Positions 2,769-5,601 of a stretch of DNA of 5,601 nt are shown one piece after another (the stretch's first letter is position 1; each line of letters begins with the position of its first letter). Made by a program: the position numbers and the translations under genes. Origin of the DNA: a virus. The stretch covers positions 1 to 5,601 of the IMG/VR virus record IMGVR_UViG_3300045988_013344; one strand, given 5' to 3'. Below the pieces are notes generated by a model. The model was not told the DNA's origin. It did not search any database and was given only the letters and a program-made list of their open reading frames with translations.

Positions 2769-3698
2769 ATGTCACTCACCTTAATGGGTCTGATCAAAGG
2801 CGGTCTCACTCTGGCAAGCACGTTATCCAGCATCTACAGCAGCATCAAAGGAAGCACTTCGAGCGCACGACAGCAAAGCACAATGCAAAACAGTGTCCAG
2901 AGCGGCACGACAATGGGGACGACCGCACAGGATACTACAAGCACAGGCGGCAGCACTCAGACCGGCAACACCGGAGCACTGGGAAATCTGTTGTCAACAG
3001 CACTCGGCACACCGACCGGGAACAACGCCGGAGCAGCCGCAAACTTCAACGCCGGACAGGTGCAGACAGCCAACAATCTGCAAAACGGTATGTGGAGCAT
3101 GGGCAACGTCATAAACCTCGGCAGTATGCTGGCATCCAACGCGATGAGTGCAGCAAGCCAAAGCAGCGCAATGCGGTACAACTCCAAAGAGGCCAAAGCT
3201 CAAAGAGACTGGCAAGAACGTATGAGTAGCACCAGCTATCAGAGAGGGGTTAAAGACCTCGAAGCAGCGGGGCTTAACCCGGTACTGGCAGCATACAACG
3301 GCTTTGGAGCACAGACACCGTCAGGCGGATACGGAAGCCTGGGCGGGGGCCAGACCTTCGGTCATACTCAAGCTATGGCAATACCGGCTGCAAAGAATGC
3401 AACAATGCAAGCCATGTACGACTATGGCAACAACACAGCACAAATCGTAGAAAACTTCCAAGCTGCCATCAACAGTGCAAAGCAATCATCGGACTACTGG
3501 ACAGCCGAACACCTTGAGCAGATGCAGCAGCAGACCGTAAGCAGCAGCGCTCAGACCGTGGGTCAGCTGGCCGAAGCGGGTAGGAACAGCAACGCTCAGA
3601 CCTCGAGCACCAGAGAGACCAGCGACAGCAAACAGACCAACGTAGCCGGTGAGCTGTCCGGTGAATGGACAAACAAAAAAGACAATCGTAGAAGATAG
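2769..3698 (+). CDS. VP2 minor capsid / DNA pilot protein of 309 aa.
   Basis: GGGGGTG ends 6 nt before the ATG at 2769. The N-terminus is hydrophobic (MSLTLMGLIKGGLTLASTL). A long S/T/G/Q/N-rich low-complexity core follows. The block SYQRGVKDLEAAGLNPVLAAYNG matches the conserved AYQR...AGLNP.LA signature of gokushovirus VP2. The gene sits immediately after VP1. Confidence 0.85.
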   Translation: MSLTLMGLIKGGLTLASTLSSIYSSIKGSTSSARQQSTMQNSVQSGTTMGTTAQDTTSTGGSTQTGNTGALGNLLSTALGTPTGNNAGAAANFNAGQVQTANNLQNGMWSMGNVINLGSMLASNAMSAASQSSAMRYNSKEAKAQRDWQERMSSTSYQRGVKDLEAAGLNPVLAAYNGFGAQTPSGGYGSLGGGQTFGHTQAMAIPAAKNATMQAMYDYGNNTAQIVENFQAAINSAKQSSDYWTAEHLEQMQQQTVSSSAQTVGQLAEAGRNSNAQTSSTRETSDSKQTNVAGELSGEWTNKKDNRRR

Positions 3699-3734
3699 TT
3701 GACAAAAACAGAAAAGAGGTGTATATTATGAGTG
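3699..3734 (+). promoter_or_regulatory. Near-consensus sigma70-type promoter: TTGACA (3699-3704), 17-nt spacer, TATATT (3722-3727). It drives the RHH gene.
   Basis: The -35 hexamer is perfect and begins 1 nt after the VP2 stop. The spacer is exactly 17 nt. The -10 matches TATAAT at 5 of 6 positions. AGGAGG at 3757-3762 sits 6 nt before the ATG at 3769. Confidence 0.7.
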
Positions 3735-3768
3735 TACCAATCGCACACTTAGCTACAGGAGGTTAACC

Positions 3769-3981
3769 ATGAGAACACAGATCACAAAACGATTCAATGT
3801 CAATCTGACTAAGGCCGAAGAAGACGCACTCAAAAACCTGACAGAAGAGTATGCAAACCGAAACTGGAAAGCAAACACATCTGACATCATCCGGGACGCA
3901 ATCGTATACTACAGCGAAAAGATGACGGACTACAAAACCGAAGCAGAGGCAATCAGCGAAGAGGAAGACTTGCCCTTCTAA
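3769..3981 (+). CDS. Ribbon-helix-helix (Arc/MetJ/CopG-like) DNA-binding protein of 70 aa. It has an acidic C-terminal tail ending EEEDLPF, which mimics the SSB C-terminal tip.
   Basis: The protein is MRTQITKRFNVNLTKAEEDALKNLTEEYANRNWKANTSDIIRDAIVYYSEKMTDYKTEAEAISEEEDLPF. It reads as an N-terminal beta-strand (RFNVNLT), helix A (AEEDALKNLTEEY), an N-rich turn, and helix B (SDIIRDAIVYY). This is the Arc-repressor topology. A dedicated strong promoter and a perfect AGGAGG RBS support it as a real gene. The last 6 residues resemble the bacterial SSB tail DDD[IL]PF. Confidence 0.75.
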   Translation: MRTQITKRFNVNLTKAEEDALKNLTEEYANRNWKANTSDIIRDAIVYYSEKMTDYKTEAEAISEEEDLPF

Positions 3982-3992
3982 GGGACGATTTT

Positions 3993-4008
3993 GCCGGGGA
4001 GACCCGGC
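3993..4008 (+). other. Short GC hairpin GCCGGG-GAGA-CCCGGC (GNRA-type loop) 12 nt downstream of the RHH stop. It could be a terminator or RNA-stability element, but it lacks a U-tract.
   Basis: The 6-bp G/C stem with a GAGA tetraloop is seen directly. No T-run follows (caaatctgcaac), so it is not a canonical intrinsic terminator. Confidence 0.25.
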
Positions 4009-4064
4009 CAAATCTGCAACATTTATCCATGAGTTCTTTTAAGAAAGTGCTAAATTTTGTGTCA

Positions 4065-4103
4065 ATGGGCCCCTATAACATCAAGAGGGTTATAGGGGCC
4101 CAT
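4065..4103 (+). promoter_or_regulatory. Perfect 15-bp inverted repeat: ATGGGCCCCTATAAC, loop atcaagagg, GTTATAGGGGCCCAT. It lies immediately upstream of the rep gene and overlaps its RBS region. It may be a candidate operator, a complementary-strand origin (in the ssDNA form), or a translational control hairpin.
   Basis: Positions 4065-4079 are the exact reverse complement of 4089-4103. The loop is 9 nt. No T-tract follows. The 3' arm ends 2 nt before the TTG/GTG/ATG start region of VP4. Confidence 0.6.
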
Positions 4104-4127
4104 TGAGGAAAGGTGCAGCGAAACTAT

Positions 4128-5237
4128 ATGTCATGTACAAGACCGCTCGTCAGGATACCGACAAGAAACGGAGATTTTCGCGTGGTGAGCCTGAAAGGAT
4201 ACTTAAGCCACAGCGGAAAGAACCTCGAATTTATCGCAGACAAAGAGCATCAGAATCTGAACGAGAAAAAAATCAAAGAGCTGCTGAAAGCTCAAGAAGC
4301 GCAGCTGCTACCGTGCGGACAATGTCCGGGATGCAAAATGGCAGCAGCATCCAGCTGGGCAAACCGGATGGAGCTAGAGCTGCCATACCATCAAAATGCA
4401 TGGTTCATCACATTCACATACGATGATGACAATATACCATACAGAATGACCTGGGACGAAGGAACAGGCGAAATACTTATTGAAAACTATAGTCTCAGGT
4501 ATGAAGATATGCAAAAGTTTTGGAAACGCCTCAGAAGGTACTTGGAGTATCACAAGATAAACAACGGAAAACTGATGTACTTCCAATGCGGTGAATATGG
4601 CGGAAAAACACACAGGCCACATTATCACGCGATCGTGTACGACATACCATTCACCAAGGACGAGCTGAAAATCTACAAAAAGAAAAACGGCGCTGTATAC
4701 TACAACGTCGATTGGTTTACCAAACTATGGGGCATGGGTCATGTGGTCATCGCAGCAGCAGAATGGAAAGCGATGGCATACACAGCAAGATACACCACGA
4801 AAAAGGTCTACGGAAAGGAAGGAAAAGAATTTTATAGAGAACTGGGAATTTTGCCTGAAAAGTGTAACATGAGCAAAAGACCAGCAATCGGAGCAAAATA
4901 TTTTGAGGAACATAGCGAAGAAATCTATAAAAAAGACAAAATACAGCTGAAGAACGGAAAAGTCTGCAAACCGCCGAAATACTTTGATAAACTATACGAT
5001 GCACAGTATCTTAGAAAACCACTCACAGATAAAGAAGTAGAAGACATTGAGCTAGTAATAGAAAAAGCCGAGTCCGATGAACTCAAAGCGATAAAGAGAA
5101 AACGTCGTAAATTAGCAAATGACGCACTCTTCGCCAAGCTCAAGCAGAACAACGGCTTAACCATGCAAGAGTATTATAGCAAGGAAGAGCAGAAAATGCA
5201 AGACAGGTTCAAAAAACTCATCCGGGAAGAAATCTAG
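4128..5237 (+). CDS. VP4 replication initiation protein (rolling-circle Rep, superfamily I HUH endonuclease; phiX174 gpA analogue). It is 369 aa from the ATG at 4128, or 374 aa if the in-frame GTG at 4113 is used.
   Basis: The N-terminus MSCTRPLVRIP...LPCGQCPGCK is the gokushovirus VP4 type. RCR motif 1 is FITFTYDD at about 4404-4427. Motif 2 (HUH) is RPHYHAIVYD at about 4614-4643. Motif 3 has two tyrosines spaced Y-x-x-x-Y (AYTARYTTKK, about 4770-4799; compare phiX174 gpA YVAKYVNKK). The TAG stop is at 5235-5237. I prefer the ATG at 4128 (AAGGTG 12 nt upstream), but the start is uncertain. Confidence 0.9.
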   Translation: MSCTRPLVRIPTRNGDFRVVSLKGYLSHSGKNLEFIADKEHQNLNEKKIKELLKAQEAQLLPCGQCPGCKMAAASSWANRMELELPYHQNAWFITFTYDDDNIPYRMTWDEGTGEILIENYSLRYEDMQKFWKRLRRYLEYHKINNGKLMYFQCGEYGGKTHRPHYHAIVYDIPFTKDELKIYKKKNGAVYYNVDWFTKLWGMGHVVIAAAEWKAMAYTARYTTKKVYGKEGKEFYRELGILPEKCNMSKRPAIGAKYFEEHSEEIYKKDKIQLKNGKVCKPPKYFDKLYDAQYLRKPLTDKEVEDIELVIEKAESDELKAIKRKRRKLANDALFAKLKQNNGLTMQEYYSKEEQKMQDRFKKLIREEI

Positions 5238-5306: not shown

Positions 5307-5346
5307 GGACGGCGTGGCCACGAAAGGCTGCGCCGTCCTTTTCATT
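5307..5346 (+). terminator. Rho-independent terminator downstream of rep. The stem GGACGGCG/CGCCGTCC closes a 16-nt loop and is followed by TTTTCATT.
   Basis: 5307-5314 (ggacggcg) is the reverse complement of 5331-5338 (cgccgtcc). A T-rich tract at 5339-5346 follows, about 70 nt after the rep stop. Confidence 0.6.
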
Positions 5347-5390: not shown

Positions 5391-5419
5391 TTAACAAGTG
5401 TATATTTTAAGTGCATAAT
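5391..5419 (+). promoter_or_regulatory. Candidate sigma70-type promoter TTAACA (5391-5396), 17-nt spacer, CATAAT (5414-5419). It would initiate the small-ORF/VP5/VP3/VP1/VP2 operon.
   Basis: The -35 matches at 5 of 6 and the -10 at 5 of 6, with an exact 17-nt spacer, in the AT-rich intergenic region. The spacer contains the 16-bp motif shared with the RHH promoter. Confidence 0.35.
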
Positions 5420-5482
5420 AAAGATGTAGAGAAGAATACAAATAAACCAAAAAAACATGAGGTTGACGAAATTCGGCCTTGC

Positions 5483-5601
5483 GTTTTTTTTTCACTTGGT
5501 AAAATTAACATAGAGAGCCAGCACCACAAAACGAAAGGAGAAAGCACTGCCTCCGGTGCTGGTGATCTGTGCTTCAACCATTTATACAAATATGGAAAGA
5601 A
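5483..5601. repeat. Terminal direct repeat, copy 2. This is redundant sequence re-reading the genome start.
   Basis: Exact match to 1..119. Confidence 0.9.

Follow-up and report, generated by a model that had tools for sequence, protein, structure and literature searches.

The 5601-base stretch of viral DNA analyzed here (IMG/VR record IMGVR_UViG_3300045988_013344; the whole stretch at its full length is referred to as the window) is a gokushovirus genome that carries a perfect stem-loop at positions 4062–4106, shortly upstream of VP4, the gene for the rolling-circle replication initiator. Judged from its relatives, this hairpin is a copy of a stem-loop module conserved across the Gokushovirinae, and we consider it probable, at roughly 60%, that the hairpin is the rolling-circle (viral-strand) origin at which VP4 nicks, with the minus strand as the functional strand. 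Gokushovirinae are the most abundant microviruses in gut and environmental viromes, and we know of no replication origin yet defined for them.

The hairpin, delineated by an inverted-repeat scan, folding and covariation, consists of two 18-nt arms (4062–4079, TCAATGGGCCCCTATAAC, and 4089–4106, GTTATAGGGGCCCATTGA) that are 100% complementary and enclose a 9-nt loop (4080–4088) reading ATCAAGAGG on the plus strand and CCTCTTGAT on the minus strand, the strand proposed to be functional. A preliminary description of this DNA had reported a perfect palindrome with a 15-bp stem upstream of rep (that is, VP4); the palindrome is indeed there and is perfect, and the arms then given (4065–4079 and 4089–4103) are the inner part of the true 18-bp stem. 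No comparable inverted repeat with nearby arms occurs elsewhere in the window, the other long inverted repeats having arms either kilobases apart or 29 nt apart at 76% complementarity. Folding-energy calculations, which had been proposed as a check, gave a stable hairpin in every form: −20.2 kcal/mol (z = −6.3) for the plus strand as single-stranded DNA (ssDNA), −19.8 kcal/mol (z = −6.9) for the minus strand as ssDNA and −40.8 kcal/mol (z = −7.9) as RNA, with no shuffled sequence folding as well in any of the three cases (0/200 each). In the RNA fold only, weak A-U and G-U pairs extend the stem out to AAGGU at 4110–4114. A TGACAC box (4059–4064; GTGTCA on the plus strand) overlaps the stem base and, read on the minus strand, comes directly 3′ of the hairpin; it is itself adjoined on that strand by an A/T tract (4052–4058; AAATTTT here and AAAAATT in relatives) conserved in the window clade only.

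Within that clade the hairpin has been maintained while its stem has been rewritten. VP4-based scans of IMG/VR and of metagenomes identified ~90 relatives with 47–98% VP4 identity, all from gut-type samples, and wherever the upstream sequence is usable the hairpin is kept, also at the lower end of this identity range (47%); conservation and covariation in related genomes had been proposed as checks in the preliminary description. In an alignment of 33 distinct clade sequences and 19 stem pairs, 96% of cells are paired and 14 of the 19 pairs show changes on both sides, values reached by none of 500 shuffles; when the partner columns are slid against each other, pairing collapses to 30–47%. Examples of compensated rewriting are TCACCTAGCCCC/GGGGCTAGGTGA, TCAGTAAGCCCC/GGGGCTTACTGA, AGTGGGGGGAATAGAC/GTCTATTCCCCCCACT and CACTGGGGGGAAATGT/ACATTTCCCCCCAGTG, and in one relative (L035) a 1-bp insertion is compensated in both arms. 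The plus-strand loop core TCAAGA is invariant in 33/33 aligned members and the plus-strand 5′ flank TGTCA is invariant across the clade, while towards its 3′ end the plus-strand loop differs among members in both sequence and length; the TGACAC box is still conserved in genomes in which it is unpaired (L079–L081). Together, the shuffles, the conservation and the covariation rule out a chance palindrome, and on this comparative evidence the hairpin is a selected structure. Because the stem is rewritten with compensation while the loop core and the 5′ flank stay invariant, both the structure and the unpaired sequence appear to be under selection, which indicates sequence-specific recognition of the unpaired loop.

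The same arrangement extends well beyond the window clade. VP1-based surveys of IMG/VR added ~170 further, more distant and largely complete genomes, in most of which the strongest or second-strongest hairpin carries a CTTGAT-type loop, and the module is present in 130 of the 177 distinct gokushovirus genomes surveyed. Read on the strand that bears CTTGAT, the elements align as arm, (Y)nCTCTTGAY, arm, TGACAC; the general form is an arm of 11–19 nt, whose sequence is free provided that it pairs, a loop ending in (C/A)TCTTGAT, the second arm and TGACAC. The strongest hairpin of the cultured Chlamydia phage Chp2 (CTAGCGTATAACAG tctacttgat CTGTTATACGCTAG) is intergenic, upstream of ORF8 and VP4, and bears CTTGAT on the coding strand; the hairpin of SpV4 reads TGGGGCATAT attacttgttata ATATGCCCCA. 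In the gut gokushovirus KT264792 the strongest perfect hairpin (TAGCCTAGTACCT atcaagta AGGTACTAGGCTA) lies right after the VP4 stop codon and, as in the window, has the motif on the non-coding strand. When the elements are oriented on the CTTGAT strand, genomes of both orientations have a TGACAC-like box after the hairpin, and hairpin and box always invert as one; it is therefore the whole module that is flipped and not the loop alone. No module was found in phiMH2K (L092). (A group of genomes designated L113–L125 carries a variant module, ACCGGCACAAG cttccttgtctat CTTGTGCCGGT TGACAC, with the loop CCTTGT on the non-coding strand, and a second conserved hairpin, TGTGGAAAAC ttga GTTTTCAACA, ~230 nt from it.)

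The identity of the loop suggests what may recognize it. The minus-strand loop CCTCTTGAT contains CTTG↓AT (the arrow marks the nick, which for the window is a predicted one), which matches the nick-site core of phiX174 protein A; in the phiX174 RefSeq record the origin of viral-strand synthesis is annotated at the A that follows CAACTTG. We estimate that a random 9-nt loop would hold CTTG[AT] on either strand in only a few percent of cases. VP4 (4128–5237, plus strand), the enzyme presumed to act on the hairpin, matches the Pfam family REP_ORF2-G2P (E = 2e-15) and PHROG 942, replication initiation protein (E = 7e-98), and its translation contains a histidine–hydrophobic–histidine (HUH) motif, HYHAIV, and a YxxxY tyrosine pair, YTARY. 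Moreover, the gokushovirus and phiX174-type Rep proteins are monophyletic and are each other's closest relatives (PMC6668415). The window locus and the phiX174 origin (CAACTTG↓ATATTAATAACAC) thus belong to the same virus family and share a homologous HUH two-tyrosine initiator, an identical CTTG↓AT core, a site in or near the rep gene and an ACAC-containing segment 3′ of the nick; they differ in that the phiX174 site is inside gene A, on the coding (viral) strand and outside the loop of any long perfect hairpin, whereas the motif in the window is in an 18-bp stem-loop that is intergenic and is on the non-coding strand.

We favor a nicking origin because the loop matches the phiX174 nick core of a homologous initiator, because phages with hosts as different as Chlamydia, Spiroplasma, and gut and environmental bacteria share the loop, an indication of VP4 and not of host priming, because the module is usually near VP4 (upstream or just downstream of it in most of the genomes surveyed), and because a conserved box, plausibly a binding site, adjoins the hairpin. 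Three of the features expected of a rolling-circle double-strand origin are found at this locus: a cognate nick-site core in the minus-strand loop, with TCAAGA invariant on the plus strand; a predicted way for that core to be exposed as ssDNA, given the 18-bp stem, the 9-nt loop, the predicted ssDNA folding and the covariation; and a matching Rep gene that starts 21 nt away. In the mechanism that we propose, the inverted repeat would extrude in supercoiled replicative-form DNA, or fold in displaced ssDNA, and so expose the loop; VP4, as a homologue of phiX174 protein A, would nick CTTG↓AT, the predicted cut falling on the minus strand between the G opposite C4082 and the A opposite T4081; the 3′-OH at the nick would prime leading-strand synthesis; and the regenerated hairpin would be cut and rejoined, releasing a unit-length circle. 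With the motif on the minus (non-coding) strand, nicking and displacement would affect the antisense strand, which would probably also be the one packaged. A phiX174-like linear origin on the plus strand was also considered. The sole plus-strand CTTGAT in the window, at 2742 in the region encoding the VP1 C-terminus, varies at synonymous sites and is missing from several relatives, which rules it out.

The main rival is that the hairpin is a complementary-strand (single-strand) origin, recognized in packaged ssDNA by a host primase, RNA polymerase or primosome. The ssDNA fold is stable on either strand and strongly covarying, as this explanation would have it, and a tentative tie to minus-strand synthesis has been proposed for conserved, fixed-loop hairpins that other microvirus clades have near Rep (PMC9865509); being strand-specific as well, such an origin would also explain the link between motif orientation and base composition described below. 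What makes it unlikely in our view is that host priming signals differ among the bacteria concerned, while the loop is kept in phages of Chlamydia, Spiroplasma and gut and environmental bacteria, and that the loop corresponds to the nick core of phiX174 Rep, a homologue of VP4. The features of single-strand origins, which are partly general knowledge (besides PMC5703833), are also lacking: the 18-bp stem is too short for, and does not contain, the −35/−10 pair of an ssoA-type origin, and the CS-6 sequence TAGCGT is absent. The preliminary description had placed a complementary-strand or primosome-assembly hairpin in the packaged plus strand; a replication origin is still the type of element that we favor, with the loop motif pointing to a nicking origin and to the minus strand.

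The position of the module relative to VP4 differs among lineages. It is 21 nt upstream of VP4 in the window, ~60–90 nt upstream in one sister lineage, 9–17 nt downstream of the VP4 stop codon in another lineage and in KT264792, and after VP1 in the genome L137; in genomes with the motif on the coding strand it is 70–420 nt upstream of VP4, with another gene between. These observations bear on a second explanation, that the hairpin regulates rep as an mRNA element, an RNA hairpin 5′ of the VP4 ribosome-binding site that attenuates translation, blocks ribosomes arriving from upstream, or stabilizes or processes the transcript. The RNA fold is very stable (−40.8 kcal/mol, z = −7.9), and its weak extensions could sequester AAGG at 4110–4113. 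Furthermore, a promoter-like site on the plus strand at 3699–3727 (TTGACA-17-TATATT, 11/12 matches, conserved in relatives) probably drives a transcript of VP4 and of the ribbon-helix-helix (RHH)-like gene upstream of it, which would cross the hairpin, and across the clade the distance from stem to ATG is held at 19–32 nt (21 nt in the window). A module that lies downstream of VP4, after VP1 or hundreds of nucleotides upstream in other lineages, and in opposite orientations with respect to transcription, does not behave as a dedicated rep attenuator would, and translational attenuation, which the preliminary description had put forward, is therefore not upheld as the primary role. In addition, uncompensated transitions in the stem leave A.C on the mRNA-sense strand and not the RNA-tolerated G.U (6 versus 1), and simple occlusion leaves the invariant loop and the TGACAC box unexplained. 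A search against Rfam 15 found no family that reaches its gathering score (the best scores, 17.6–26.6 bits against thresholds of 53–100, are generic hairpin matches). We regard an mRNA-level primary role as quite improbable. A secondary effect confined to the window clade is conceivable by analogy, in that VP4 bound at its origin, or the RNA hairpin, could damp rep expression, since the module stands at a near-fixed distance from the VP4 start and inside the probable RHH–VP4 transcript.

The supposed overlap between the stem and the translation signals of VP4 is slight. By conservation, VP4 starts at ATG 4128: this codon and the N-terminus M-x-C-T-R-P-L are invariant in relatives, VP4 of the GenBank relatives is annotated from the equivalent ATG, and the two other starts that had been considered, TTG 4103 and GTG 4113, are not conserved (they are CTG and GCG, respectively, in close relatives) and are ruled out. 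TTG 4103 moreover sits within the stem arm and in a reading frame other than that of rep, so that of three candidate starts only ATG 4128 is retained. Nor does the stem cover the purine-rich GAGGAAAGGTG taken to be the ribosome-binding site; only G4105 and A4106 are in the stem, and the block abuts the hairpin. The Shine-Dalgarno-like sequence for VP4 on the plus strand (GAGGAAAGG, 4105–4113) has its first two bases in the stem and lies 14–22 nt upstream of the ATG, and relatives have a comparable purine-rich block at similar spacing. This ~14–22 nt distance is unusually long, the other genes having GGAGG-type sites 6–8 nt upstream, and both the long spacing and an intervening GAAAC motif are conserved clade-wide. 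A highly basic open reading frame of 97 codons (4133–4426, +2 frame relative to VP4) overlies the 5′ end of VP4, and its equivalent in MG945186 is annotated as a hypothetical protein; the frame stays open only where VP4 identity is at least ~80% and is broken in more distant clade members, and it is probably not a conserved overlapping gene.

The module occurs in both orientations relative to the genes, and orientation goes with base composition. We classified 130 distinct genomes by the strand that bears the motif and determined the composition of the coding strand at fourfold-degenerate sites of VP1. Where the motif is on the coding strand (84 genomes), T exceeds A in 67 and pyrimidines predominate (T+C > 0.5) in 72; where it is on the non-coding strand, as in the window (46 genomes), T exceeds A in none and pyrimidines predominate in 1. 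The motif-bearing strand is thus T-rich in 46/46 window-oriented genomes and in 67/84 of the opposite class, in lineages that are phylogenetically dependent on one another. In the first survey, mean values at these sites were 53% T and 11% A for the coding-strand class versus 12% T and 36% A for the non-coding-strand class; the window has 13% T and 27% A in VP1, and 17% T and 34% A genome-wide. In ssDNA phages the packaged strand typically shows a preference for codons that end in T, a bias ascribed to deamination of C to T in ssDNA (PMC3278643). Substitutions lean the same way: singletons of the window clade at fourfold sites of VP1 comprise 9 G>A and 0 C>T (at 44 G and 45 C sites), singletons pooled at synonymous sites of eleven gene clusters from window-oriented genomes give 0.196 G>A versus 0.102 C>T per site, and in two gene clusters of the opposite class the asymmetry leans the other way. 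Likewise, of the distinct cases of an uncompensated transition in the stem, 6 leave G.T and 1 leaves A.C on the CTTGAT strand.

These data suggest, on sequence evidence, that the minus strand of the window is the strand that is nicked, displaced and encapsidated, encapsidation following because microvirus packaging is coupled to displacement. Antisense packaging is mechanistically permissible, since transcription depends on the double-stranded form no matter which strand comes into the cell. The two orientation classes are interleaved among clusters built by the unweighted pair group method with arithmetic mean (UPGMA) on VP1 identity, which implies several independent orientation switches, on a tree that is crude and serves only for a rough count. 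We hold the chances for and against antisense-strand packaging in the window clade to be even. The same balance applies to the broader proposal that the window clade and several other gut gokushovirus lineages (46/130 classified genomes) have the origin inverted relative to the genes and displace and encapsidate the mRNA-complementary strand, which would make them negative-sense Microviridae whose polarity has flipped several times. To our knowledge, only coding-strand packaging has been described for the Microviridae.

Several points weigh against a nicking origin on the minus strand and the polarity that would follow from it. The phiX174 origin is not in a hairpin loop, and the likeness to it is a 6-nt core noticed post hoc. 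A complementary-strand origin would account for much of the comparative signal too. Among the environmental genomes with a coding-strand motif, 12–17 are exceptions in that their coding strand is A-rich, and phiMH2K is A-rich as well. The lineages are not independent, with perhaps only 3–6 orientation switches behind the counts; host codon usage could help to make the coding strand T-poor; some gene clusters show a weak singleton asymmetry or none; and the 6:1 tally of G.T versus A.C is not significant alone. Finally, the calibration of polarity on Chp2 and SpV4, in which we take the viral strand to be the coding strand, is from textbook knowledge. Given the A-rich exceptions, we reject base composition alone as proof of polarity and treat it as supportive, not decisive. 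(The A-rich exceptions are the environmental genomes L222, L225, L227–L229, L252, L254, L260, L267, L270, L280 and L292–L304, together with L092, which is phiMH2K; the environmental ones, with the motif on the coding strand, have A at 0.4–0.7 and G at 0.02–0.15 of fourfold sites.)

Upstream of the hairpin lies the RHH-like gene (3769–3981, plus strand; 70 aa), which is clade-specific and outside the conserved module. The hairpin might accordingly be an operator for its product, a palindromic double-stranded site at which the RHH-like protein represses rep, mirroring copG-repB of plasmid pMV158. This gene is immediately upstream in every member of the clade, and the predicted DNA-reading N-terminal segment of its product, KRxNxNLT, is conserved, as is the hairpin. 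Yet the module occurs in dozens of genomes without a homologue of the gene (a hidden Markov model of the protein matches the window clade and L123 only), and the arms change wholesale, for example from GGGCCCC to GGGGGGAA, while the N-terminus of the protein stays constant. Co-occurrence with the gene breaks down in all other lineages, and symmetric half-sites are not what is conserved; the conserved part is instead the asymmetric loop and one flank, and the 1-bp insertion compensated in both arms fits pairing and not half-site spacing. The inverted repeat AGTGT-N9-ACACT at 3731–3749, at the promoter, is a better candidate operator, and the RHH fold is itself weakly supported: Pfam RHH_1 matches 5/11 members (best E = 0.006), and a single-sequence AlphaFold2 model, of low confidence (predicted local distance difference test score, 61), has an extended segment followed by two helices. 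The operator role proposed in the preliminary description thus falls away as the primary one, since the module occurs without the gene and the arms vary while loop and one flank are fixed, and we judge it very improbable.

Several further features of this region were noted. The inverted repeat AGTGT-N9-ACACT lies just downstream of the −10 element of the promoter-like site at 3699–3727 and is conserved in relatives. The RHH-like gene has a mosaic make-up among the genomes L001–L090: it is conserved in the N-terminus M[KR]SQ..KRxNxNLT and in the segment SDIIRDAI, and the middle and C-terminus exist in several unrelated versions (53–79 aa) that do not track VP4 similarity, a pattern that suggests recombination. 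L123, outside the clade, has an RHH-like homologue, and the module was not detected in it under the criteria used. Another conserved hairpin, GATTTTGCCGGG GAGA CCCGGCCAAAATC-like and containing a single bulge, comes right after the RHH stop codon, at 3987–4014, and has no T-run after its stem. Relatives have at this position a GC-rich stem with a tetraloop or triloop and a different sequence, so that it covaries too (the counterparts in L048 and L079 are of the type GAAGTGACCGAG CGAA CTCTCGGTCACTTC and TTGACGCGGT TAC ACCGCGCCAA, respectively); this second hairpin could be an attenuator or a complementary-strand origin.

The stem is GC-rich and stands between two genes, a position typical of transcription terminators, and in some relatives it is followed on the minus strand by CACAATTTTT. 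The hairpin might then terminate the RHH transcript on the plus strand or, on the minus strand, a rep-controlling antisense RNA like RNAII in pMV158. An intrinsic terminator has a T/U run after its stem, whereas in the window the stem is followed by GGAAAGG (plus strand) or CACAAAA (minus strand), and a terminator scan did not list the hairpin. A terminator has no need of an invariant loop, the minus strand downstream yielded no promoter-like site from which an antisense RNA could start, and clear terminator-like hairpins occur elsewhere (5307–5338 and 5458–5481). On these grounds termination is a highly improbable function. The latter two hairpins have T-runs and lie in the long non-coding region after VP4, and beyond them is a second promoter-like site (5391–5419), an arrangement that suggests two transcription units, one for RHH–VP4 and one for the structural genes. 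Both promoter-like regions share GTGTATATT.T.AGTG (repeat D17; 3714–3734 and 5393–5413).

Hairpin origins nicked by HUH Rep proteins are well known in other replicons. The pC194 plasmid family has the nick core CTTG↓ATA, the same as here. In double-strand origins of rolling-circle plasmids (pC194/pUB110, pMV158, pT181), as proposed for the window, the nick site is in the loop of a palindrome with a Rep binding site adjacent, and the origin is usually just upstream of rep (PMC5703833). In pUB110, binding of RepU at the origin has the further effect of silencing the neighboring rep promoter (PMC5703833), a parallel to the possible secondary effect on VP4 expression in the window clade. Such plasmids differ in that they are not viruses packaged in capsids, have Reps of distant or different families, and control their copy number by antisense RNAs, of which none is evident in the window. 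The origin stem-loops of CRESS-DNA viruses (circular genomes of single-stranded DNA that code for a Rep) likewise have a covarying stem and, in the loop, an invariant motif at which an HUH Rep nicks, and are intergenic beside rep; their origin may be on either strand relative to rep, and genomes of both senses exist. CRESS-DNA viruses differ in having Rep fused to a superfamily 3 helicase, a different motif (for example TAATATT↓AC) and eukaryotic hosts. Among microviruses, a comparable description is that of Cap–Rep hairpins in reekeekee- and roodoodoo-microviruses, which, in the portion of the account available to us (PMC9865509), are intergenic near Rep, have identical loops and show compensatory stem substitutions. 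These belong to other clades, are tentatively linked to negative-strand synthesis and are likened to the module by description only; that portion of the account contains no analysis of nick motifs or of strand orientation. In searches of the full-text literature, including the main gokushovirus papers, no gokushovirus origin, conserved hairpin or variable strand polarity was found to be described. Origin stem-loops nicked by HUH Reps are thus known; what would be new is a hairpin-presented, phiX174-type nick motif as a gokushovirus origin, and its inversion relative to the genes.

The window itself is a circular 5482-nt genome whose first 119 nt recur exactly at the end (1–119 = 5483–5601), a terminal redundancy left by an assembly that ran past its start. 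The gene set is that of a gokushovirus, with every gene on the plus strand: besides the RHH-like gene and VP4, these are VP5 (372–635), the VP3 scaffold (616–1128), the VP1 capsid (1125–2756) and the VP2 pilot protein (2769–3698). Four Microviridae from gut or faecal samples in GenBank are 83–89% identical to it across most of the genome. A search for a host in which genomes of the Genome Taxonomy Database (GTDB) were scanned with VP4 patterns gave no match, nor did one in which the E. coli genome was probed with an origin region of the coding-strand class. One clade member (L190) is on a 26.6-kb contig from a human gut metagenome (OPDJ01000625) that far exceeds the size of a microvirus genome; prophage, concatemer and misassembly are all possible explanations, and the contig could hold a clue to the host.

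The family-wide module, with its covarying stem, TCTTGAT loop and TGACAC box, provides a concrete and directly testable candidate for the origin of gokushoviruses, and could act as a landmark for orienting and circularizing microvirus contigs. If its orientation marks the packaged strand, the assumption of coding-strand packaging in all Microviridae would be wrong for a large share of gut gokushoviruses. Were this so, strand-specific methods of virome library preparation and quantification would be affected, as would models of mutation bias and codon usage in ssDNA phages, and replication and transcription would proceed head-on, rather than co-directionally, on genomes that package the antisense strand.

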